29,797 nt of DNA, taken from the IMG/VR virus record IMGVR_UViG_3300020571_000016, positions 1 through 29,797 of that record, one strand, 5' to 3'. This document shows, piece by piece, positions 1-16,593 of the stretch; position 1 is the stretch's first letter, and each line of letters begins with the position of its first letter. The notes beneath the pieces are model-generated. The model was not told the origin of the DNA. It saw only the letters and a list, made by a program, of their open reading frames with translations, and searched no databases. Source of the stretch: a virus (taxonomy: Duplodnaviria > Caudoviricetes). A program made the translations under genes and the position numbers.

Positions 1-1670
1 CCATTAACAACGAACGCGCCTGCTGATCCCGTATTAACGCCCAGCGCAGTAACAACGCCGGTACCCGTTGTAATGCTGCTCGGCGCAGCGCCAGCGCCGC
101 CACCGACAACCAACGCATTTGCAGCCAGCGCAGTTGACGAGGCAATCGTTCCGGCAGCGGTAAAGGCCAACACGCCGCCGCTTGTTCCGCTGGTTAATCC
201 GGTGCCACCATTGGCAACAGGCAAAGTGCCTGTAACATCCGATGCAAGGTTAACCGAAAGCGTACCGCCCAGTGTCAGGTTGCCGGAACTTGTCACCGTG
301 CCGGTAAGCGTAAGGCCGTTAACCGTACCTGTGCCGCTAACCGATGTAACTGTTCCCGTGCCGCCGGTTGCTGCAATCGTAATAGCGCCGGAACCGTTGG
401 TAATGCTAATGCCACTACCAGCAGTAAGCGTCGCTTTTGTAAGCGTGTTACCAGTGGAGTTGCCAATTAACAACTGACCGTTGGTGTAAGACGTTTGACC
501 CGTACCGCCATTGGCAACAGGCAAAGTGCCGGTAATTTGGCTTGTTAGGTCAACACCAGACAGTGTACCGCCTAGCGTCAAATTACCCGACGAGGTAACA
601 GTGCCGGTCAGCGTAATGCCATTTACCGTGCCTGTGCCTCCAACAGAAGTGACCGTTCCAGTACCGCCAGCCGCAATCCACGACAGCGTGCCGGAGCCGT
701 TGGTTGAAAGAACATTCCCATTCGAACCATCAGCGCTTGGGAGCGTATAAGTCGTGCTGCCAGCAGCCGCAGCCGGAGCAATACCAACGTAACCAGATGA
801 AGAACCAGAAAGGCGAAGAGTGCCCTTAACATCAAGTTCGCTGCCGGGGGTAAGATAACCAGCGCCGATACCAACGTTGCCGTTGTTAAGAATAACCATG
901 CGAGTGACAGATACGCCACCGGACGACTCTGCTACATCGTAAAGATTAAACTGCATCGGCAACGGCGTTCCCGTGCCTTCTGAGTTTGAATTTAATGATG
1001 CCGCAACATTTGTAAGGCGAATACTTGCGCTGCCAGCGTTGTTTGGATCAGATGAACTATTAGACAAACTCCAACTTGTAGTCGTGCTGGTTCCATTTGG
1101 AATTACACTAACTCGAGTATCAGCGTTTGTCGTATAACTCTGAAAAACAGTTCTGCCGGACCAAAGACCGTTAAATTTTCCAGTAATTTTTTGGCTTGTA
1201 CTTGAAAATGTTAAGTTTCCAGAAGCCAAGTCAATTTTTTCAGACGGCGTGTTAGTGCTTACGCCAATTCGATCGGTTGACGCATCAACAAACAGCAAGT
1301 TTGCGTCAGTATCACCCTCAATGCGCGTATCCTTGTCTGCACCGGCTTCGTTAATAACTACAGCGCCATTCAGTGATGAATCGCCAGAAACATCAAACTT
1401 GGCCGACGGCGTATTAGTGCCAATACCAATACGATCCGTTGAGGCGCTGGCAAAGAAAAGATTTGCGTCTGAGTCGCCTTCAATACGGGTGTCGTTATTG
1501 CCGCCAGCCTCGTTAACAACCAGCGACCCGTTGATGGTCGTTGATGGCATCGCGCTTGCGATGTTTGAAAGCGTTAACTTGTAGTTAGCGCCTGATCTGG
1601 CAATGACATATTCGTCGCCTGATTGGGCTGGCGCGCCAGAACTTAATGCACTAATTTTAGTGTCGGCCAT
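1..1670 (-). CDS. Fibre-type virion protein (tail or head fibre) with Gly/Thr/Ser-rich repeats; 3' end runs off the window
   Basis: Not in the ORF track because it is truncated. ATG at 1670 follows GGAG. The frame is open to base 1: MADTKISALSSG...DRIGIGTNTPS...GNVGIG...TYTLPSADGSNGNVLSTNGSGTLSW...GTLPVANGGTG (x2), typical phage fibre repeats. Confidence 0.85.
   Translation of the reverse strand, partial: MADTKISALSSGAPAQSGDEYVIARSGANYKLTLSNIASAMPSTTINGSLVVNEAGGNNDTRIEGDSDANLFFASASTDRIGIGTNTPSAKFDVSGDSSLNGAVVINEAGADKDTRIEGDTDANLLFVDASTDRIGVSTNTPSEKIDLASGNLTFSSTSQKITGKFNGLWSGRTVFQSYTTNADTRVSVIPNGTSTTTSWSLSNSSSDPNNAGSASIRLTNVAASLNSNSEGTGTPLPMQFNLYDVAESSGGVSVTRMVILNNGNVGIGAGYLTPGSELDVKGTLRLSGSSSGYVGIAPAAAAGSTTYTLPSADGSNGNVLSTNGSGTLSWIAAGGTGTVTSVGGTGTVNGITLTGTVTSSGNLTLGGTLSGVDLTSQITGTLPVANGGTGQTSYTNGQLLIGNSTGNTLTKATLTAGSGISITNGSGAITIAATGGTGTVTSVSGTGTVNGLTLTGTVTSSGNLTLGGTLSVNLASDVTGTLPVANGGTGLTSGTSGGVLAFTAAGTIASSTALAANALVVGGGAGAAPSSITTGTGVVTALGVNTGSAGAFVVN
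200..672 (-). repeat. Two-copy internal repeat in the fibre (GGTGTVTSV.GTGTVNG.TLTGTVTSSGNLTLGGTLS...TGTLPVANGGTG), period about 300 nt
   Basis: The DNA ccattggcaacaggcaaagtgcc occurs at 208 and 508, and the two translated units are nearly identical. Confidence 0.85.
1243..1522 (-). repeat. Two-copy internal repeat in the fibre (V.NEAG...DTRIEGD.DANL.F..ASTDRIG..TNTPS)
   Basis: Seen in manual translation; boundaries approximate. Confidence 0.75.
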
Positions 1671-2158: not shown

Positions 2159-2521
2159 TCAAGCCAAGAATTTTAGGCGGTAAATCGTAGATAAGTACAA
2201 GCCAAAAATGGCGTCTAACAGGTTTTGCAGCGTTGTGTCGTCTTTACTGACGACTTTATACCGCATTTCCTCAAGTTCCTTAAGTTCCTTTTCCAAAAAG
2301 TCAAGCACGTTGTTTGACTTCTGGGCAGAGGCTAGGGCAATCGGGCCGATCAGCCCGTGCCGCCCCTGATAGGCTTCGGCAAAGTCGTCCGCGAGCGGAA
2401 TAATGCCCTCGTAAAACTTCTGTAGCGCTTTGTGCTTGGCGTAGTTACGGGTATTTAGATGCGTGGAATGGGTCACATCCCGCGCTAGAAATAGCCGTCC
2501 GATAAAGACTTCGCAGGTCAT
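2159..2521 (-). CDS. Ferritin/Dps-like four-helix protein (DUF5856-like)
   Basis: H..HLNT..YAKHKAL..FYE.....AD.FAEAYQG motif and C-terminal YRLKFL; ATGA-coupled to the portal gene. Confidence 0.7.
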   Translation of the reverse strand: MTCEVFIGRLFLARDVTHSTHLNTRNYAKHKALQKFYEGIIPLADDFAEAYQGRHGLIGPIALASAQKSNNVLDFLEKELKELEEMRYKVVSKDDTTLQNLLDAIFGLYLSTIYRLKFLA

Positions 2522-8572: not shown

Positions 8573-8917
8573 AACAAGAAGTTTAGCGGAGTTTAAAAAA
8601 ATAAAAAAGTTTTTGTGGGGGTATTGTTAATGTCAAGGACCTTCCACAGGCCCTGTACCCCCCTTGTTGCTTACTCACAACAATTCTTGTGCGTGTACCA
8701 AAACTGCAACAGCCTTAAAAGTTTACGGCGAGAGTTAGCGAGAGAGGGTGCCAAAGTTTGGAAGTGCCTCGAATACCAACCGAGGATTTTTTAAAGGTGG
8801 TTGTTTTTCCCTAGGCAACATTCAGGGACGTTTTTTTTCTAACCATCACTTTTTTGTTTTTAGCCTAGACGCGAATGGTTATCGTTATGCGTAATAGAAT
8901 CGTTTGCAATACGTTAT

Positions 8918-9001
8918 GTTGCGTAGATGCAACGCGTTGCGTTTATGCAACATGGCTACGTTGTGGCGTAGATGCAACAGTTAGTGTTGCGTGGATGCAA
9001 C
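8918..9001. repeat. Array of four 16-bp palindromes GTTGCGTNNATGCAAC (putative protein-binding sites)
   Basis: Copies at 8918-8933, 8936-8951, 8963-8978 (GTGGC variant) and 8986-9001; degenerate copy at 8666-8681. Confidence 0.85.
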
Positions 9002-9057
9002 ACGATCAGGCGTCAGCAATCCGTAGTGACTACGGTAGGCTCTGTAGTCATTTCGAC

Positions 9058-9274
9058 TACTAACGCTCAAACCCTATAAAAATAGGCATTTACGAGCAAT
9101 GTTAGTAAGTCAGTAAGTATTTCTTCCCTATACTTTTACTGTACTAACTTTTTTTGCAACTTCACTACTCTCTGTCTTTTTTACTAACAGTTTCTATTTC
9201 TCCATGATTTTCAATAGTTTAGGTGTTAGTAATTTTCACCCTAACTTCTGAATAGTGCTACTACGCTTACTGAC
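9058..9274. other. Putative replication origin: TACTRAC/GTYAGTA iterons in both orientations in AT-rich DNA, with an IHF-like site
   Basis: TACTAAC at 9058, 9142, 9182; TACTGAC at 9268; GTTAGTA at 9101, 9225; GTCAGTA at 9109; TTTCAATAGTTTA at 9209-9221. Confidence 0.6.
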
Positions 9275-9311
9275 GCAACAGATACCTAGCGTTTTGTGTA
9301 TGTAACTTGTG

Positions 9312-9340
9312 TTGACAGCATCGACACAACAAGGTGTAAT
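9312..9340 (+). promoter_or_regulatory. sigma70-type early promoter
   Basis: TTGACA-N17-TGTAAT, 38 nt upstream of the first plus-strand gene. Confidence 0.65.
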
Positions 9341-9378
9341 GCAATCGTTGACAGACAAAACACACGGAGCAACTAGCA

Positions 9379-9630
9379 ATGTTTAGCCATTCAGACTTTG
9401 AAGCCAACCCGAAAAAGTACGAGTTAGTAAAAACGGCTCGTGTCGCTTCCCATGTATTTACAGAGAACGGCTCTGACGATCTTGCAAAGGGTCAATTTGT
9501 CGCCGTTCGTCACATTCGCAATGCCTATAACGGCTTGCGTCATCGCATGGAGCCTGTTTACAGCATCACCGCAAGCGGCAAGGTGTGGGGTGTGATGTTC
9601 GCTTCTAATCTCTCTGACTTCGTTCTGTAA
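9379..9630 (+). CDS. Early hypothetical protein (83 aa)
   Basis: GGAG RBS; first gene after the promoter. Confidence 0.75.
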   Translation: MFSHSDFEANPKKYELVKTARVASHVFTENGSDDLAKGQFVAVRHIRNAYNGLRHRMEPVYSITASGKVWGVMFASNLSDFVL

Positions 9631-9640
9631 GGGGATAACT

Positions 9641-9781
9641 ATGACTCACTTCCTTAACTCCATCGTCTTCGTAGGCTTCACCCTCGCTTGTGTTGCCTTT
9701 GTAATAGATTCCTTTACACTCGGAGCCGGTGGCATAACCGTTGCCGGTATCGCTGCCTTGATCGACTACGTTCGCAACTAA
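9641..9781 (+). CDS. 46-aa hydrophobic (about 2 TM) early protein
   Basis: Manual translation MTHFLNSIVFVGFTLACVAFVIDSFTLGAGGITVAGIAALIDYVRN*; AAGGGG RBS. Confidence 0.7.
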   Translation: MTHFLNSIVFVGFTLACVAFVIDSFTLGAGGITVAGIAALIDYVRN

Positions 9782-9799
9782 CTCTCGGAAAATCACAAA

Positions 9800-10057
9800 A
9801 TGAAGCCTTACGCACAATACAAACCAGACGGCAAACTGTGGTCAGCAGGTCGCACCATTTATGGCCTCTGCGCTGCTTATAACCATGCCACAAGCCCATC
9901 ACGCTTGATGACGGACGAGCAGCACCAACGCTCTAACGTCTACGCTCGCGCCATCCGTAACCGTATTAGACGCATGGGCTACCGATACGGAGAGCATTAC
10001 TCGGAATGGTCGAATGGTGCTCTCTATCCGTGTTCTGTTAAGTCTACCAATCCCTAG
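9800..10057 (+). CDS. Early hypothetical protein (85 aa)
   Basis: ORF in the plus-strand operon; its stop lies 4 nt before the ribozyme. Confidence 0.65.
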   Translation: MKPYAQYKPDGKLWSAGRTIYGLCAAYNHATSPSRLMTDEQHQRSNVYARAIRNRIRRMGYRYGEHYSEWSNGALYPCSVKSTNP

Positions 10058-10060
10058 AGA

Positions 10061-10110
10061 GGTCGAAACGCCGTGAGGCGTCTAGCAGTTATGCTGCTAC
10101 TGATGAGACC
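10061..10110 (+). ncRNA. Hammerhead ribozyme, type II; predicted cleavage 3' of C10082
   Basis: GGUC-GAA-ACGCC(GUGA)GGCGU-C^-UAGCAG(UUAUG)CUGCUA-CUGAUGA-GACC. All core nucleotides and three perfect stems are present; intergenic. Confidence 0.95.
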
Positions 10111-10125
10111 AACAAACTAGGAGAT

Positions 10126-10431
10126 ATGCACATGGGTTACACAATCAACGACACCGAATCCCGATACAACGGTTGGACTAACTACGCTACGTGGCGCGTC
10201 AATCTGGAGATCTTCGACGGGTTCGACCCCTCTGACTATTTCTCAGGCTTTGACGCTGACGATATCGACGCATTGGCTGACGGTCTGTCTGACTACGCCG
10301 ATCAAGTGTTGTTCGAGTGCGCTACCGTCGAGGGGTTAGCCGCTGACTATGCCCGCGCCTTTTTGTCTGACGTTAACTGGCGAGAGATTGCCGAGCATAT
10401 GTTGGACGCCATCAAGCAGGAGGCCGCATGA
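10126..10431 (+). CDS. Acidic early phage protein (YNGWTNYxTW type)
   Basis: AGGAG RBS; YNGWTNYATW...VNWREIA motifs. The start may be at 10132. Confidence 0.8.
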   Translation: MHMGYTINDTESRYNGWTNYATWRVNLEIFDGFDPSDYFSGFDADDIDALADGLSDYADQVLFECATVEGLAADYARAFLSDVNWREIAEHMLDAIKQEAA

Positions 10432-10739
10432 ACGCTCACACTCCATACCCGTGGACGGTAGACGGAACAATTGCCGCCGAAAATTTAGATGTAATCGGTG
10501 AAGGTGGCCGCGTTGCCATGCTTGATTGCGACGATATCGACGCCGACACGTTAGAAGCCAATGCTCGATTGATCGCCGCCGCACCGGAACTCCTCGAAGC
10601 CCTGATCCTTTTGCTGAATGTAGAAAGCGCAGCCTTATGGGGGGCGCGTTTAACCGCCGCGAATAATGGTTTAGATGTTGCCTATCATTTTGATAAGGCT
10701 AGAGCCGCCATCGCCAAGGCTAGCGGGGAGGCCGCATGA
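10428..10739 (+). CDS. Early phage protein with HTP.PW / ANARLIAAAPELLEAL motif
   Basis: Widespread phage motif; ATGA coupling and GGAGG RBS. Confidence 0.8.
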   Translation: MNAHTPYPWTVDGTIAAENLDVIGEGGRVAMLDCDDIDADTLEANARLIAAAPELLEALILLLNVESAALWGARLTAANNGLDVAYHFDKARAAIAKASGEAA

Positions 10740-10921
10740 GAGCCTTTGACGTGGTGCTATTTACCTGCATCCAAGAGGTCGTAACCGTTGAGGCACGCGA
10801 CGAGGACGATGCCGCCGAGATCGCCTTGCACATCGTCCGAGCGGGCTACACGAAACACGACCAACTGGATTGGGACGTCGAAGAGGTAAATATAGGAGAC
10901 CCTGCCGATGTCGCAGAATGA
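10736..10921 (+). CDS. Small acidic early protein (VEA.DEDDA.E.A motif)
   Basis: ATGA coupling and GGAGG RBS. Confidence 0.7.
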   Translation: MRAFDVVLFTCIQEVVTVEARDEDDAAEIALHIVRAGYTKHDQLDWDVEEVNIGDPADVAE

Positions 10922-11117
10922 CCAGATACGCGCCGCCCTGATTCTAGGGCGCTCGCTCACCCCGCTCGATGCCTTGCAGGACTATGGATGCTTCAGGCTT
11001 GCTGCCCGTATCGCAGACCTACGCCGTGAGGGCATGGACATTGAGTGCATTAACGAAACGAAGAACGGCAAGCGATACGCTCGCTATCAACTGCGGAGGC
11101 CGTATGCGTCTGCATAA
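10908..11117 (+). CDS. Winged helix-turn-helix protein (HTH_39-like)
   Basis: LTPLDALQDYGCFRLAARIADLRREG..I motif; GGAG RBS. Confidence 0.8.
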   Translation: MSQNDQIRAALILGRSLTPLDALQDYGCFRLAARIADLRREGMDIECINETKNGKRYARYQLRRPYASA

Positions 11118-11226
11118 ACTCTGGCAACTAGGGTACTGGTACGCTCGCGGCCACGATTGGCGACACGTACCGCCCCCGAACTGGCGATCCAGCCGCGCAC
11201 AACATCCGCTCTCCAATTACTGGTGA
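11104..11226 (+). CDS. 40-aa Trp-rich hypothetical protein
   Basis: GGAGG RBS before ATG 11104; MRLHKLWQLGYWYARGHDW... Confidence 0.55.
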   Translation: MRLHKLWQLGYWYARGHDWRHVPPPNWRSSRAQHPLSNYW

Positions 11227-11230
11227 CACT

Positions 11231-11440
11231 ATGGAAAAGCCACACATACCAACCCTGCAAGAATTAGAGGCTCTATTTGCCGACGACGATACACCCCTCA
11301 CCTACCGAGCACCCCCCGACCCTGCGCGGCTCCAAACGGCTGTGCGGGCGTTTATCAGCGCATGGGATGACGACTTGACGGTTAGGGAACTCGCGCCTTT
11401 TGTTGAGGAAGTGCGCCGCGCATTGGAGGGTAGGCCATGA
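11231..11440 (+). CDS. Hypothetical protein (69 aa)
   Basis: ORF within the coupled operon. Confidence 0.65.
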   Translation: MEKPHIPTLQELEALFADDDTPLTYRAPPDPARLQTAVRAFISAWDDDLTVRELAPFVEEVRRALEGRP

Positions 11441-11571
11441 CCGAGTTTCATGAACGATGGGGGTTGCAGCCAACCTATCCACGGCTAACCCGTTGCACTC
11501 GCCGGTATTGGATCACTTATCTCGGGCGATGCGTAGATACTGCGAGGGCGACACTATGGCGGGATTCTTGA
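11437..11571 (+). CDS. 44-aa hypothetical protein
   Basis: ATGA coupling and GGAGG RBS; MTEFHERWGLQPTYP...LWRDS*. Confidence 0.55.
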   Translation: MTEFHERWGLQPTYPRLTRCTRRYWITYLGRCVDTARATLWRDS

Positions 11572-11618
11572 TCGCCGTCGCCTTGACGGTACTTGCGTCG
11601 ATATTGTTCGACGATTAA
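11556..11618 (+). CDS. 20-aa hydrophobic peptide
   Basis: MAGFLIAVALTVLASILFDD*; GAGG RBS; ends just before the terminator. Confidence 0.4.
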   Translation: MAGFLIAVALTVLASILFDD

Positions 11619-11620
11619 CG

Positions 11621-11649
11621 GAGGGGGCTTCGCGCCCCCTCTCTTATTT
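11621..11649 (+). terminator. Intrinsic terminator between convergent operons
   Basis: GAGGGGGC-TTCGC-GCCCCCTC followed by TCTTATTT. Confidence 0.75.
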
Positions 11650-12969
11650 CACGGCCTGAAGATCAGGCTTACCCTCGACCATCGCCCGGATGTCTGACTT
11701 GCTACGGTCGGCCAACTCGGGAGCCACCCAGAGGTGTTTCGGCGTCTGATATTCGCGGCTCATAACTCGCCCGATATCCTTCCAGCCACTCTCTCGCAGG
11801 GCGACGAATAACGTCTCACGGGACGGTTTATGGCCGTCCGTACCTGCGGCAATGCCAGACAGCACCTCCGACCACGGAGAGCCTATAACGCCTCTAGCGA
11901 AGACTCCGCGACGTTGCCGCACCATGTCAGCGATAAATGCCTCGCCGCCGCTCATGCCAAGATCGACCATCGCCAATTTCGCATCAGTCAACGGCGGCAC
12001 GGCTCCGGGGTTGAACGCGCTAACGTCTCGCGCATCCAGGTAACCCGCCACAGCCTCAAACCCGCCCTTGCCGTACCAATCCCACAGCCTTGCGGCTTCG
12101 TCGTCCGGTAGGCGTGGCGCTTGCGACCAGATGACGAACCAGCGTCGATCATCAGCCGGAATCGTAATGGGCGCTCGATCATTACTGAACGCCAGCACGA
12201 AAATCCTATTCACCACATAGTACGGGTGCTGTTGCTTCTTATTGACCAGCAGCAACTCGGGCGGCGCAGCGATCACGGGCTTCAGGTTGTTTTCCATCGC
12301 TCGACGGTCATCGCCCTTGCGGTATCGAATCTCGTTTAGCACGATGACTTCGGACTCGTAGGTATAGCCCCACGAGCCAGCGACCTCTTCAGCCCTAGCC
12401 ACGGCTATGTTCTTGAGCGAACCGCCGCCAATAGACCACAGGAAAGGCGCCCAGAGCGTGTCCTTACCACCACCCGGCAAACCCGTGTGCAGCACGGCAT
12501 GGTTTATCTTGCGGCTCGGGTTCTGGCGCTTGTACGCCATCACGTTCAAAACGTGTTCGCGCTCAAAGTCGGCAGGGATCATCCGGTGCAGGTGGTTTAG
12601 CCACAGCGATACGTCCGCGCTCTGTGCGGCTGGCCGTGAGTCCTTCCACTTGTTGACGTAGCCCACCCCGGCTTTCTTCAGCAACTCGGTTTCACCCGGC
12701 GCATACGTCAGGGCGTTAGCGACGTAACTACCCATCGCAGCCCGGTTCTCATCGAAGAAGGTAGCCGCCTCAATGCGCCTAGCCTTGTTGTGTACGGAGT
12801 AGCACGGCGTGCCCCGAAACAGGGCGTTAAACGTCTGCCGGGAATAGTCCTGATGCGTCTTGACATCGAAAAACAGGTCGCCCTCGGCAACGTAAACAAA
12901 TCGTTTAAACCAGTCAGCCGGTGCCAACTGCGATACATCACCATCCGCGAGACTTTCGTATTCATCCAT
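11644..12969 (-). CDS. SF3/D5-type (DUF5906-like) replicative helicase without a primase domain
   Basis: Walker A GLPGGGKDT, Walker B VIVLNE, motif C AFSN, DDRRW arginine finger. Start at ATG 12969 (GTG 12999 is possible). Confidence 0.85.
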   Translation of the reverse strand: MDEYESLADGDVSQLAPADWFKRFVYVAEGDLFFDVKTHQDYSRQTFNALFRGTPCYSVHNKARRIEAATFFDENRAAMGSYVANALTYAPGETELLKKAGVGYVNKWKDSRPAAQSADVSLWLNHLHRMIPADFEREHVLNVMAYKRQNPSRKINHAVLHTGLPGGGKDTLWAPFLWSIGGGSLKNIAVARAEEVAGSWGYTYESEVIVLNEIRYRKGDDRRAMENNLKPVIAAPPELLLVNKKQQHPYYVVNRIFVLAFSNDRAPITIPADDRRWFVIWSQAPRLPDDEAARLWDWYGKGGFEAVAGYLDARDVSAFNPGAVPPLTDAKLAMVDLGMSGGEAFIADMVRQRRGVFARGVIGSPWSEVLSGIAAGTDGHKPSRETLFVALRESGWKDIGRVMSREYQTPKHLWVAPELADRSKSDIRAMVEGKPDLQAVK

Positions 12970-13006
12970 TGCATAACCCCACTGTTCTGCTATTCTCACG
13001 GAGCAT
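12962..13006 (-). CDS. Putative 14-aa leader peptide overlapping the helicase start
   Basis: GGAG-N9-ATG; MLRENSRTVGLCNG*; its stop lies within ATGGATGA at the helicase ATG. Confidence 0.4.
   Translation of the reverse strand: MLRENSRTVGLCNG
12969..12996 (+). promoter_or_regulatory. sigma70-type promoter for an antisense sRNA
   Basis: TTGCAT-N16-TATTCT with an extended -10 TG. Confidence 0.6.
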
Positions 13007-13071
13007 TGCGATTTTCTCCGTGTACTTCTCCTAGAGAGACTTCAGCCCCACCTCACCGTGGGGCTTTTTTT
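13001..13071 (+). ncRNA. Putative ~70-nt antisense/regulatory sRNA
   Basis: Bounded by a plus-strand promoter and a plus-strand terminator inside a minus-strand operon; contains two anti-SD tracts (UUCUCCG, UUCUCCU). Confidence 0.6.
13044..13071 (+). terminator. Intrinsic terminator oriented against the operon
   Basis: AGCCCCAC-CTCACC-GTGGGGC-T7. Confidence 0.8.
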
Positions 13072-13390
13072 ATGGACTGCCCATTCGTCGGTTAGCCGAG
13101 ATGGTGCGCCATGTGTCGAGGACGATGCGCTCGGTTTCGCGCTTGTTCGCCATCTTGGCGTAGAGCGCGACAGCCGCACAATACCGTTCGTGCGACTCTT
13201 TCGTGGCGTGGTGGGTCGCGGCAATCGCTTGCCGCTCCGCCACCGTACCCTCGGCATGAGTAAAGACGGCCTCACGGGTCGCCTTCCAGCCATACTCGGC
13301 ACGCTCCATCTCAGCCTTTGCCAGCGCGCACGGCTCGTCTGTATCGACGAGATACCGCAGCGCTTTCTCGGCTCTTTCTTCGCTAATCAT
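13070..13390 (-). CDS. Helical coiled-coil protein of the recombination module (loosely UvsY-like)
   Basis: Coupled ORF; C-terminal WRT..AN.R motif. Confidence 0.65.
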   Translation of the reverse strand: MISEERAEKALRYLVDTDEPCALAKAEMERAEYGWKATREAVFTHAEGTVAERQAIAATHHATKESHERYCAAVALYAKMANKRETERIVLDTWRTISANRRMGSP

Positions 13391-13704
13391 TAGAAGCCCA
13401 ACGGATCGTTGAGGTCAGCGTTTGCCCAATTCTCTTCGGTCAACCCTGCGGCTGGCGCGGCTTTCTTTGCCTGAACCTGCTTCGGGTTGAACTTCAGCGC
13501 AAGATACTTTTTGCCGCTCTTCGCAGTCTTTAAGCGTGCGTCAATCCAATATTCGGTGTCACCAATCAAGCCGCTGCCTTTGTAATCAGCGTCTTCGATG
13601 GTGTAAGTATCGCCCGTCGAACTTTTAACGGTGCGCGGCTCGCCCTTGTTTTCGTTTTTAAACACTGAACCCGTATTCGGGCGAACTTCATAAGTTTTGT
13701 TCAC
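13390..13704 (-). CDS. Putative single-stranded DNA-binding protein
   Basis: G.VFKN..K...DYKG...YWI.......GKKYL.L core and acidic-aromatic tail DLNDPLGF; next to the exonuclease. Confidence 0.65.
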   Translation of the reverse strand: MNKTYEVRPNTGSVFKNENKGEPRTVKSSTGDTYTIEDADYKGSGLIGDTEYWIDARLKTAKSGKKYLALKFNPKQVQAKKAAPAAGLTEENWANADLNDPLGF

Positions 13705-14315
13705 AGAGTCATCTCCTTCAATTTAGAAACCTTATCATCTAACTCAGCCAAAAACTCCTGCACCTCTTTCTCTAAAAGGGTGATGCAGTCTGTATCCCGT
13801 GGGATACGCACCACGAGCAGTTGTAATTCCTCGGGCATCCTCGGATCGTATGAGACCCAATCGCACCAGTCCGTACCCGTGCAGGCCATCTGCCATTGCA
13901 TCTGATAAAAATACTTTTGCGGCGGCTCACGCTCAAAGAGGTACTCAATGTGCGTAGCCGTAGACGGACACTTAATCTCGACGCAGCCATTGACGCCCAC
14001 CAATCCGTCAGGACTGGCTCCTGCCATTTCGATTGCAGGGTGGTTGATAAAGCCTACCTCGGTGACGAGTTCGCCTACTTTGGCGCTGTAAGCGTCTCGC
14101 GCTTTGGCTTCTTGCTCGACGCCCCATTCCATCGCGGCACTACTGAACCCTTCGGTCGGCTTGCCGGTTAAGCGTTCGCATACCAACTGCGCCATGTAGT
14201 TTGCGCGGGTAGCAGCATAGCCACTCTTCGTTCGTGCCACTACATCCGCCACCTTTGAGGCTGTCACCTTACCCAAACGGGCGGCGTGCCATTCTGTTGT
14301 TCGTTGCTCCATCAC
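13701..14315 (-). CDS. YqaJ-like (lambda Exo family) exonuclease
   Basis: EQRT.EW..ARLGKVTAS, GASPDG, EIKCP, YQMQWQM, SYDPR. Confidence 0.93.
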   Translation of the reverse strand: MMEQRTTEWHAARLGKVTASKVADVVARTKSGYAATRANYMAQLVCERLTGKPTEGFSSAAMEWGVEQEAKARDAYSAKVGELVTEVGFINHPAIEMAGASPDGLVGVNGCVEIKCPSTATHIEYLFEREPPQKYFYQMQWQMACTGTDWCDWVSYDPRMPEELQLLVVRIPRDTDCITLLEKEVQEFLAELDDKVSKLKEMTL

Positions 14316-14626
14316 TTGTTTCTCTTCATAAATTCCAGCGCCTCACGGCTGAAATTAAAACCGGCGTATTCGTAAGTGTATGTGCTGCCATCGTCCCAAA
14401 TGACAATGATGAAATCATTGCCTAGCACGTAACAGCCGCGAGCCTGAATCTCGCCGCCATCGCCACGAATAAAAGCGAAATGCTTTTCATCACAATTTGT
14501 TTTCGAGGTTGTAAAATATATCTGACCGTTAGCCCGATTGTTCACACTACCCAATAAATACGGCAAGTCATCTGCTGACGCCACGCCAATCATTAACGCG
14601 GCTACTGCTATCCACCTTTTCATCAC
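14312..14626 (-). CDS. Secreted/periplasmic hypothetical protein
   Basis: Signal-peptide-like N-terminus MMKRWIAVAALMIGVASA; two Cys; AGGAG RBS. Confidence 0.7.
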   Translation of the reverse strand: MMKRWIAVAALMIGVASADDLPYLLGSVNNRANGQIYFTTSKTNCDEKHFAFIRGDGGEIQARGCYVLGNDFIIVIWDDGSTYTYEYAGFNFSREALEFMKRNK

Positions 14627-14847
14627 TCTTCTCCTGTCTCCATGAGACGTTTAAGTTCTCGACACTCGCGCTCAAGGCGCTCCATCTTTTCTGTAGTTAC
14701 AATAAGTCGGCTGGTTGCCTCGTCCCGTTGCTCCAATACGCGCCTCAACTTCTCGGCCAACGCTTGCGATAATTCTGACGAGTCAGGGATCGCCATTGTG
14801 TGACCGATGATTTCGTAGTCGGTCATTAGCGCGTAGTAAGGGGTCAT
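14623..14847 (-). CDS. Coiled-coil hypothetical protein
   Basis: Four-base start/stop overlaps at both ends. Confidence 0.65.
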   Translation of the reverse strand: MTPYYALMTDYEIIGHTMAIPDSSELSQALAEKLRRVLEQRDEATSRLIVTTEKMERLERECRELKRLMETGEE

Positions 14848-16144: not shown

Positions 16145-16353
16145 TGCGGATTCCTCAGTTTGGCGGATGCAGCGTCAATCGCAGCAATGCACTCGGCAAA
16201 CGCTTGGTGCAGTTTAAAAGCGCCTTCGGCTTCGATGCGGTTGAGTTCGTTTAAGCCTTCGATGACGTTGAAGGCGGCGTGTTCGGCGCGGCAGTGCAAC
16301 TCCATGAGTCGGTCACGTTCCTGCTCGGCCAAGATGCGGTAATCGTCTTCCAT
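16141..16353 (-). CDS. Hypothetical protein, first gene of the leftward operon
   Basis: GGAG RBS before ATG 16353; alternative start at 16365. Confidence 0.65.
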   Translation of the reverse strand: MEDDYRILAEQERDRLMELHCRAEHAAFNVIEGLNELNRIEAEGAFKLHQAFAECIAAIDAASAKLRNPQ

Positions 16354-16386
16354 GTCTTTCTCCATCGGGGCCAATCCCCGAAGTGC

Positions 16387-16427
16387 AGTATACTCCCGTT
16401 GACGATCATGTCAACACCTGTTACTGT
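16387..16427. promoter_or_regulatory. Overlapping divergent sigma70 promoters on the palindrome GTTGAC-N6-GTCAAC
   Basis: Plus strand: TTGACG(16399)-N17-TACTGT with TG. Minus strand: TTGACA(16414)-N16-TATACT. Confidence 0.75.
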
Positions 16428-16434
16428 GCAACCT

Positions 16435-16593
16435 ATGACACCGAAACAACTACTGAAGATTTATGGCTCCCAGAGCGAGATTGCTCGGGCGTTGGGCGTA
16501 ACCCGGCAGGCTGTGCTGCGCTGGTTCAAGGAAGACAAGATTCCTGCGTTGCGCCTGTATCAAATTCAATGCGTGCTGAAGGTCAATGAATAA
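16435..16593 (+). CDS. Cro-like HTH regulator, probably leaderless
   Basis: MTPKQLLKIYGSQSEIARALGVTRQAVLRW....IPALR.YQI. Confidence 0.85.
   Translation: MTPKQLLKIYGSQSEIARALGVTRQAVLRWFKEDKIPALRLYQIQCVLKVNE

Follow-up and report, generated by a model that had tools for sequence, protein, structure and literature searches.

In plasmid R1 (CopA/CopT), an upstream open reading frame (ORF) for a leader peptide could couple translation, and the C4 RNA of phages P1 and P7 (Rfam RF01695) is a phage RNA that limits replication or the lytic operon. According to the available text of one report, CopA is a cis-antisense RNA over the leader of the replication gene, with translational coupling involved (PMC5415839). 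Short cis-antisense RNAs with their own promoters are described for phages as well: P22 sar, which blocks initiation of ant translation, and lambda OOP (PMC12197685, as far as its accessible part goes). The P4 CI RNA is described as processed from its target transcript, with premature termination at seqA/seqC (PMC4825925, available sections). SviR, a small RNA (sRNA) of the phage satellite PLE, acts in trans on multiple targets and lowers translation of phage genes, in the portion of the report at hand (10.1101/2022.04.08.487710). Proteins can do similar work: T4 RegA and RegB switch off many early messages at their initiation regions (PMC3014915, in part).

A possible target side for such regulators has been described in cluster K mycobacteriophages. 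There, a repeated phage-specific tag called SAS is found at the ribosome-binding sites (RBSs) of uncoupled non-structural genes and is conserved beyond pairing with 16S rRNA. In four genomes a lone copy has the opposite orientation, and in the accessible text the authors leave open whether the partner is an RNA or a protein (PMC3203893).

Here we analysed a 29.8-kb phage sequence (the window, meaning the whole stretch of 29,797 nt). In a first-pass annotation of this DNA, a small RNA had been noticed whose sequence is complementary to the starts of early genes. Our results point to a conserved antisense unit at the start of a helicase gene which, in the clade of this phage, likely also blocks tagged gene starts in trans. 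We give this reading a probability of about 0.55.

An antisense unit opposite the helicase start

The unit lies opposite the start of a stand-alone helicase gene, whose product matches PHROG 1156 at positions 485-824 only. No primase domain was matched among the window proteins scanned. In distant relatives an N-terminal part is fused to the helicase (764 aa; L062/L128, 9770-12064); it is lost in the helicase of the window. The features of the locus are as follows.

11644..12969, minus strand: stand-alone DUF5906 (primase-associated) helicase (Pfam PF19263), the transcription unit targeted in cis
12962..13006, minus strand: upstream ORF of 14 codons in a different frame from the helicase, with the sRNA covering its SD and ATG
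12969..12996, plus strand: predicted sigma-70-type promoter of the sRNA (pattern TTGnnn-16..18-TAnnnT)
13003..13071, plus strand: predicted 69-nt sRNA, its ends placed by the pattern, +1 = G13003
13003..13009, plus strand: seed box 1, GCAUUGC, complementary to a start codon, at the predicted 5′ end; invariant in 37/37 clade-A loci
13016..13023, plus strand: seed box 2, CUCCGUGU, an anti-SD and four upstream bases; invariant in 37/37 clade-A loci
13027..13034, plus strand: second anti-SD, UCUCCUAG, partly inside a weak hairpin; complement of 10117-10124
13044..13071, plus strand: intrinsic terminator, 8-pair stem and U run

The promoter consists of a -35 box TTGCAT (12969-12974), a 16-nt spacer and an extended -10 TG-c-TATTCT (12991-12996), and its opposite strand holds the helicase start codon and the upstream ORF, with which it overlaps. 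In the terminator stem, two independent double-sided changes were observed among clade A/B loci. A 5′ hairpin at 12997-13022 was rejected as part of the sRNA because it would require a start inside the -10 discriminator; it can form in the mRNA.

Read on the minus strand, the same 20 nt (13004-13023) are the SD and ATG of the upstream ORF before the helicase, and the RNA is thus primarily cis-antisense. As in CopA-like systems, the unit faces the leader of a replication gene from the opposite strand and has a promoter and terminator of its own. The sRNA reached the gathering score of no Rfam family (there were four weak matches), it did not match the C4 or isrK-type models at E<=5, and blastn of the unit against a collection of named phages gave no match. 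A look-up of RNA runs for 9200-13400 also listed no match, a result that carries no information on expression. The unit is very probably a real cis-antisense RNA gene.

Conservation of the unit in relatives

Relatives of the helicase were taken from viral and metagenome contigs, which yielded 99 helicase-anchored locus records. A terminator match was found upstream in 86 of them, and each of these 86 terminator-bearing records also carried the TTGnnn-16..18-TAnnnT pattern, with an implied opposite-strand transcript of 54-73 nt. Inspection of the 13 misses revealed truncated loci, loci of the fused-primase outgroup and two loci with a stem variant outside the pattern. After removal of 10 duplicate records, 76 loci remained, which fall into five classes by seed (A, 37; B, 6; C, 9; D, 6; E, 18), many of them near-identical and non-independent, so that the clades represent about three independent groups. 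In the helicase tree A and B were joined (92/87), C was placed with D and E (100/99), and D and E were intermixed. The postulated small RNA is thereby supported as a conserved gene.

The -10 box was found in six forms (TATTCT, TATCCT, TAGTCT, TACCCT, TACGAT and TATCTT), with the T, the A and the final T constant. In 67/76 loci the predicted +1, seven bases after the -10, is a G followed by CAU, and clade C has CGACAU. Thus, the first bases of the predicted RNA are complementary to a start codon. Each of five complete genomes contained a single promoter-bearing terminator (1/9, 1/6, 1/9, 1/6 and 1/10), and it was always this unit.

Since the pattern was chosen after viewing clades A-E, the blind test is limited to two outgroup genomes, G004 and G005. 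In both, a unit covering the SD and ATG of the fused 764-aa primase-helicase was found without prior knowledge, with a poor -35, so that its promoter identification relies on the extended -10. An annotated relative, MW202483 (46.7%), has no such unit in the 200 nt inspected at its primase-helicase start. In L095 and L096 the gene start falls beyond the retrieved sequence.

In the clade-A sRNA, positions 1-7 and 12-22 are invariant in 37/37 loci and positions 8-11 are variable. D/E seeds carry UCACC in place of CUCC. In the clade-B RNAs of L092 and L093 the anti-SD is duplicated, and the clade-C RNAs (L035-L040) have two CAU-containing seeds in tandem; together these suggest repeated gain of extra seeds.

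In clade E and the outgroup, the sRNA covers the ATG of the replication gene itself; in clades A-D, the covered ATG opens an out-of-frame upstream ORF. In 37/37 clade-A loci this ORF stops within -7 to +11 nt of the helicase ATG, and in 6/6 clade-D loci its stop overlaps that ATG. In clade C and 5/6 B loci the covered ORF is long and overlapping, with its stop 20-130 nt inside the helicase gene; frame and stop thus differ in B and C, and coupling is not general. Because the cis arrangement is found in all clades and in the outgroup, antisense control in cis at the start region of the replication gene appears to be conserved and is probably the ancestral role.

Predicted targets in trans

The first-pass annotation had reported an ungapped Watson-Crick match at 17 of 20 positions between 13004-13023 and 9362-9381. 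The match is exact and unique in the window: the next-best site reaches 15/20, and a search allowing <=3 mismatches gave 2 window matches (itself and 9362), with a mean of 0.01 in 100 shuffles. As a duplex, it proved less continuous than the 17/20 complementarity implies. The cofold structure predicted at 9379 has one helix of 7 pairs (with 9376-9382) and another of 8 pairs (with 9362-9369), with a 6x6 loop between them. The proposed extension by G-U/A-U/G-U pairs falls mostly at 13001-13002, which is probably not transcribed, as the promoter pattern sets +1 at G13003. The 8-mer matches were confirmed as described: 13027-13034 and 10117-10124 are perfectly complementary, and CUUCUCCU matches the SD of ORF 14626/14623.

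To rank possible targets, 61 gene starts were curated by hand and sorted by the cofold energy of the full RNA. The top four were 9379, 14623, 16353 and 10132, listed here with the promoter of the first.

9312..9340, plus strand: predicted early promoter (TTGACA, 17 nt, TGTAAT), +1 near G9347, placed from the sequence and its variants in relatives
9362..9382, plus strand: initiation site (SD and start codon) of the first early gene, the top predicted target in trans (-16.6 kcal/mol, rank 1/61); belongs to the repeated early-gene start tag
14621..14640, minus strand: RBS of ORF 14626/14623, located within the upstream gene's 3′ end; predicted target (-16.2, rank 2/61)
16351..16366, minus strand: RBS and start of the gene that opens the leftward recombination/replication operon; predicted target (-14.9, rank 3/61)
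10117..10134, plus strand: RBS of the gene that follows the hammerhead, with its start at 10126 or 10132; predicted target (-14.3 kcal/mol, rank 4/61)

The first early gene, the RBS of ORF 14626 and the hammerhead-released gene, all named as targets before, thus stand at ranks 1, 2 and 4; the leftward start at rank 3 is an additional one that the first-pass annotation had not listed. The earlier identification of ORF 14626 as the replication gene did not hold up; it has no family match. In relatives the RBS at 14621..14640 is conserved while the gene downstream changes. The other eight early starts of the window ranked poorly (17 to 60 of 61), the label "early" being drawn from position, promoter and variability.

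In G001, the complete record corresponding to the window, 9379 was 4th of 1069 ATG windows by cofold, after the cis site and two internal ATGs. Its energy was reached by 1/300 shuffled seeds, and by 7/300 when CAU and CUCC were held. By plain duplex energy without accessibility, 9379 fell outside the top 22 of 2036 windows; as the two calculations disagree on this site, its ranking depends on the method. According to cofold with accessibility, an accessible conserved seed would pair over the SD/AUG of unlinked genes.

Two further elements were observed near these sites. Gene 11231 (11213-11233, plus strand) has a GGTGA-type SD that is kept in clades A and B and is unmatched by the local sRNA; it serves as a natural negative control and may lie outside the regulon. 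A short G/C hairpin (16367-16379, minus strand) lies at the 5′ end of the leftward transcript, just before its first RBS, and is conserved in all five clades.

Seeds and early starts across clades

The seed changes between clades and the early starts change with it, so that relatives retain complementarity in a form that depends on the clade. In 5/5 clades, the starts bound best were those of the own or the sister clade (mean cofold at uncoupled early starts, which were machine-called, some of them false, with A targets subsampled at 40/109). In clade A the mean was -11.4 for own starts and -5.1 to -8.0 for others, and in clade C -10.1 and -5.4 to -7.2. The remaining values were -10.9 (own) and -10.2 (A) for clade B, -10.9 (own) and -10.5 (E) for clade D, and -6.4 (own) and -5.6 (D) for clade E.

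Own seeds bound early starts better than non-early ones (rank-test p 0.004, 0.006 and 0.001, from non-independent samples), and there was no own-seed preference at the non-early genes of G001-G003. Since non-early genes lack this preference and clade A uses GGTGA-type SDs elsewhere, a genome-wide RBS style was rejected as the explanation of the match between seed and tag.

When CAU and anti-SD were fixed, shuffles equalled the real seed in 4, 0 and 1 of 300 cases (A1, A2 and B, respectively). In clades C, D and E the match beyond SD plus AUG was not significant (42/300, 141/300 and 197/300 shuffles). Thus, a match beyond generic SD plus AUG is present only in the clade of the window (A) and its sister (B), and the D/E match is a shared SD type.

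At the first early gene, the own sRNA outperformed four foreign sRNAs in 22/25 clade-A loci. At the first leftward gene, the own clade was best in 3/3 loci of A, 1/1 of B, 1/2 of C and 0/4 of D/E. L091, which gave no values, was left out of these comparisons. Seed and tag shift jointly between clades. The compensatory change proposed earlier as a check was not seen within clade A: there, which of the two main spacer alleles a locus carries is unrelated to its target spacer. Departures from the seed were not enriched for G-U pairs (28/156 in A, 7/30 in B).

The outgroup has a repeated early tag of its own. The G004 sRNA does not match it (-4.3), and G005-type RNAs match it about as well as they match foreign tags. 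Repeated tags thus arise with no RNA to match them, and recombination that copies a tag into the leader stays a real rival.

Hammerheads and tagged cassettes

The hammerhead noted upstream of 10117-10124 was recovered with its core present and the expected fold (z -2.2), and is a predicted ribozyme; Rfam gave no report for it at E<=5.

10061..10110, plus strand: predicted hammerhead ribozyme of type II arrangement (stem II open), full core and fold, predicted cut after C10082

Among relatives, a tag-type RBS follows the hammerhead in 13/13 contexts. Hammerheads occupy varied sites of the cassette region in L009, L034, L017, L018 and L075, always directly before a tag-type RBS, and L009 and L034 have two per genome. 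They look like part of a mobile cassette joint. A false hammerhead match in L085 was discarded.

The first early RBS keeps ACACGGAG in 25/25 clade-A loci where the site was found (in 12 of 37 it was not found or lay outside the locus), followed by 14 different N-termini. Part of this conservation is explained by block inheritance, since the first early leader abuts the promoter. The same tag also heads several later cassettes. As with SAS, this is a repeated, oriented motif at the starts of uncoupled non-structural genes which is conserved beyond the SD.

Genome content

The window is podovirus-like, with portal, terminase, head-closure and tail genes (PHROG), and its proteins are identical to those of a 38.5-kb IMG/VR record. 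G001 encodes a P22-type coat protein. Its ends are repeated (277-540 = 37364-37627), which indicates a genome of ~37 kb that is probably complete. In the window, the small genes from 9379 to about 11618 form a rightward operon. It is convergent with a leftward operon that encodes ERF, exonuclease and helicase.

The phage had been described as having no visible CI. This stands for the S24 type, but a Cro-like gene with an operator-like palindrome is present.

16435..16593, plus strand: gene for a 52-aa Cro-like HTH protein, oriented divergently to the leftward operon (Pfam P22_Cro, E 9e-12)
16398..16415, no strand assigned: perfect operator-like palindrome GTTGAC-N6-GTCAAC overlapping the leftward promoter, a candidate operator

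The Cro-like gene has no visible SD, and GTTGAC is common to the palindrome, the early promoter and the predicted early start. Imperfect inverted-repeat copies (GTTGCG-TAGA-TGCAAC type) at about 8900-9005, between the divergent late and early promoters, form a candidate origin, packaging or operator array. The portal gene is followed by a gene that matches PHROG 858, "starvation-inducible regulator" (window 2159-2521, minus strand), and L085 has a 2OG-Fe(II) oxygenase gene among its tail genes (13758-14360, minus strand). L083, a 1.9-kb clade-E helicase fragment inside a MAG titled Gammaproteobacteria, is a weak host hint and possibly mis-binned.

Proposed mechanism and alternatives

The most likely interpretation of these sequences is a cis-antisense brake on replication that later acquired control over early genes in trans and would act as a timing switch. 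Host RNA polymerase would transcribe the 69-nt RNA from the sigma-70-type promoter, and its 5′ end (G-CAU, spacer, anti-SD) would pair with AUG and SD. In cis, the RNA would pair fully with the helicase start region and cover the upstream ORF, whose stop overlaps the helicase start; this would lower coupled translation of the helicase or lead to cleavage of the duplex. In trans, ribosome loading would be blocked at the first gene of each divergent early operon, and the hammerhead-released gene and other tagged cassettes would be covered as well. As genome copies rise, the RNA would accumulate and serve as a feedback brake and an off-switch of the early phase in lytic growth. The sequences show the anatomy, conservation and clade-specific complementarity of the unit, and transcription, pairing, repression and timing are inferred. 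We lean slightly towards the view that the RNA also represses the tagged early genes of this clade. We hold more tentatively, at somewhat less than even odds, that the cis brake was repurposed as a master off-switch, with cassettes joining via a tag that mirrors the RNA 5′ end, hammerheads exposing further tagged starts, and seed and tag rewritten together in each lineage.

If the RNA controlled only the helicase leader, the likeness of early starts to it would come from recombination copying of one strong RBS tag at cassette joints, with no trans effect under selection. Such copying would suit a phage that encodes an ERF annealing protein and an exonuclease (PHROG) and swaps early genes behind a repeated tag, with up to 7 near-matches in L017. 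The cis arrangement is, moreover, the one that all clades and the outgroup conserve, a repeated tag occurs in the outgroup with no matching sRNA, and clade A shows neither internal compensation nor G-U bias. However, in the window no start codon follows the second anti-SD (13027-13034) in cis, and the two separate seeds of clade C each match a different type of early start. In A, B and partly C, the start context of the first leftward gene, outside the cassette region, changes along with the seed. Finally, if the RNA is expressed, a site with 15 pairs and -16.6 kcal/mol should allow it to act, regardless of how that site arose. We regard action in cis alone as unlikely. The RNA-based immunity switch put forward in the first-pass annotation, by which a resident non-integrated genome would be kept quiet and superinfecting relatives blocked, is less probable still. 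It would agree with predicted targets at the head of the two early operons and at the replication gene, with clade-specific seeds that resemble immunity groups, and with the absence of an S24-type CI (S24 peptidase PF00717, 0/5 complete genomes). Antisense control of a replication gene is also typical of plasmids, in the available text of PMC5415839. Still, tyrosine integrase (PF00589), serine recombinase/resolvase (PF07508, PF00239) and ParA (PF13614) were found in 0/5 complete genomes, and a scan of bacterial genomes returned 2 loci (one on a 1.9-kb contig, the other a 33% match on a 10-kb contig), neither of them showing an integrated copy. Most early genes are, moreover, weak predicted targets. 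A role in lytic timing fits better than immunity, which we consider improbable, although a partition-free carrier state is conceivable.

A functional RNA might also be missing altogether, the tag being a site for a RegA-like repressor, a RegB-like nuclease or a host factor, or just a strong RBS, and the hairpin a stop for read-through. T4 does shut off early mRNAs via their SD with proteins, as the accessible part of PMC3014915 describes. Against this, the -10 keeps T-A-x-x-x-T in six variants at a fixed distance from G-CAU and the terminator, the unit is unique in each genome, and the clade tag is not common to non-early genes, which makes this explanation very improbable. We give even less credence to host shut-off by an anti-SD RNA aimed mainly at host messages, like the toxic small RNAs of Burkholderia, whose function is given as unknown in the available text (PMC4603805). 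The sRNA has two CUCC motifs and a weak Rfam likeness to RF02278 (26.5 bits, E 0.17), but this score is far below the 50-bit cut-off, the D/E seeds carry UCACC, and seeds track phage tags.

Comparison with described systems

Three chromosomal RNA families, RF02278, MmgR/suhB (RF00519) and anti-hemB (RF02837), resemble the predicted sRNA in being short and having CUCC motifs before a terminator. It scored 26.5, 22.9 and 22.2 bits against them, with cut-offs of 50, 41 and 49.5, and the likeness comes down to anti-SD and terminator. CopA resembles it in arrangement, as a cis-antisense RNA over a replication-gene leader with an upstream ORF. Compared with the accessible description of CopA, the unit analysed here belongs to a phage without signs of plasmid maintenance, covers SD and AUG directly and has added trans targets; stops compatible with coupling occur only in clades A and D.

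In the available account, sar and OOP have single cis targets tied to lysogeny and share no tag with a gene class. P4 CI and C4 are phage RNAs that pair in two patches and limit replication or a lytic operon, as the predicted sRNA would. However, in the accessible text CI comes from the strand of its target, whereas the RNA described here would be a primary opposite-strand transcript aimed at start codons, and it has neither an Rfam match nor temperate markers around it. The proposed mechanism thus differs from that of the P4 CI RNA, as the RNA has its own predicted promoter on the opposite strand. Its conserved role is apparently in cis, and the trans match is lineage-specific. SviR is encoded by a satellite against its helper, and the available text describes no mirror of its own gene-start tag. 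We found no description of a phage sRNA that mirrors the start tag of its own early genes, in a search which covered little of the subscription literature.

The closest description of the target side is SAS. As far as the accessible text goes, a repeated RBS tag is common to both and the lone inverted copy is described for SAS; the sequences are unrelated and the SAS tag is looser. Of the 13-bp cluster K consensus only GGAG is present here, and the 17-bp inverted repeats are absent. Unlike in SAS, the opposite-orientation copy lies within a promoter-terminator unit that is cis-antisense to a replication gene. Start tags were thus known with their partner left open (PMC3203893, in its available part), and the 69-nt RNA is a concrete, small and testable candidate for such a partner. 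Natural sets of seed and tag exist in several clades of this phage group. They appear to represent evolutionary stages, from a cis-only outgroup through clades matching at the SD level to clades with an extended match, in which the helicase has its own downstream start.

T4 RegA and RegB, as far as the text at hand describes them, are proteins, whereas the factor predicted in this phage is an RNA, and its seed changes along with the tag. If the proposed reading is true, an RNA and not a protein would end the early phase in this group of small podoviruses. It would be an RNA counterpart of RegA and RegB, a trans-acting sRNA born from a cis-acting one, and a candidate for the type of partner that SAS-like tags may have.
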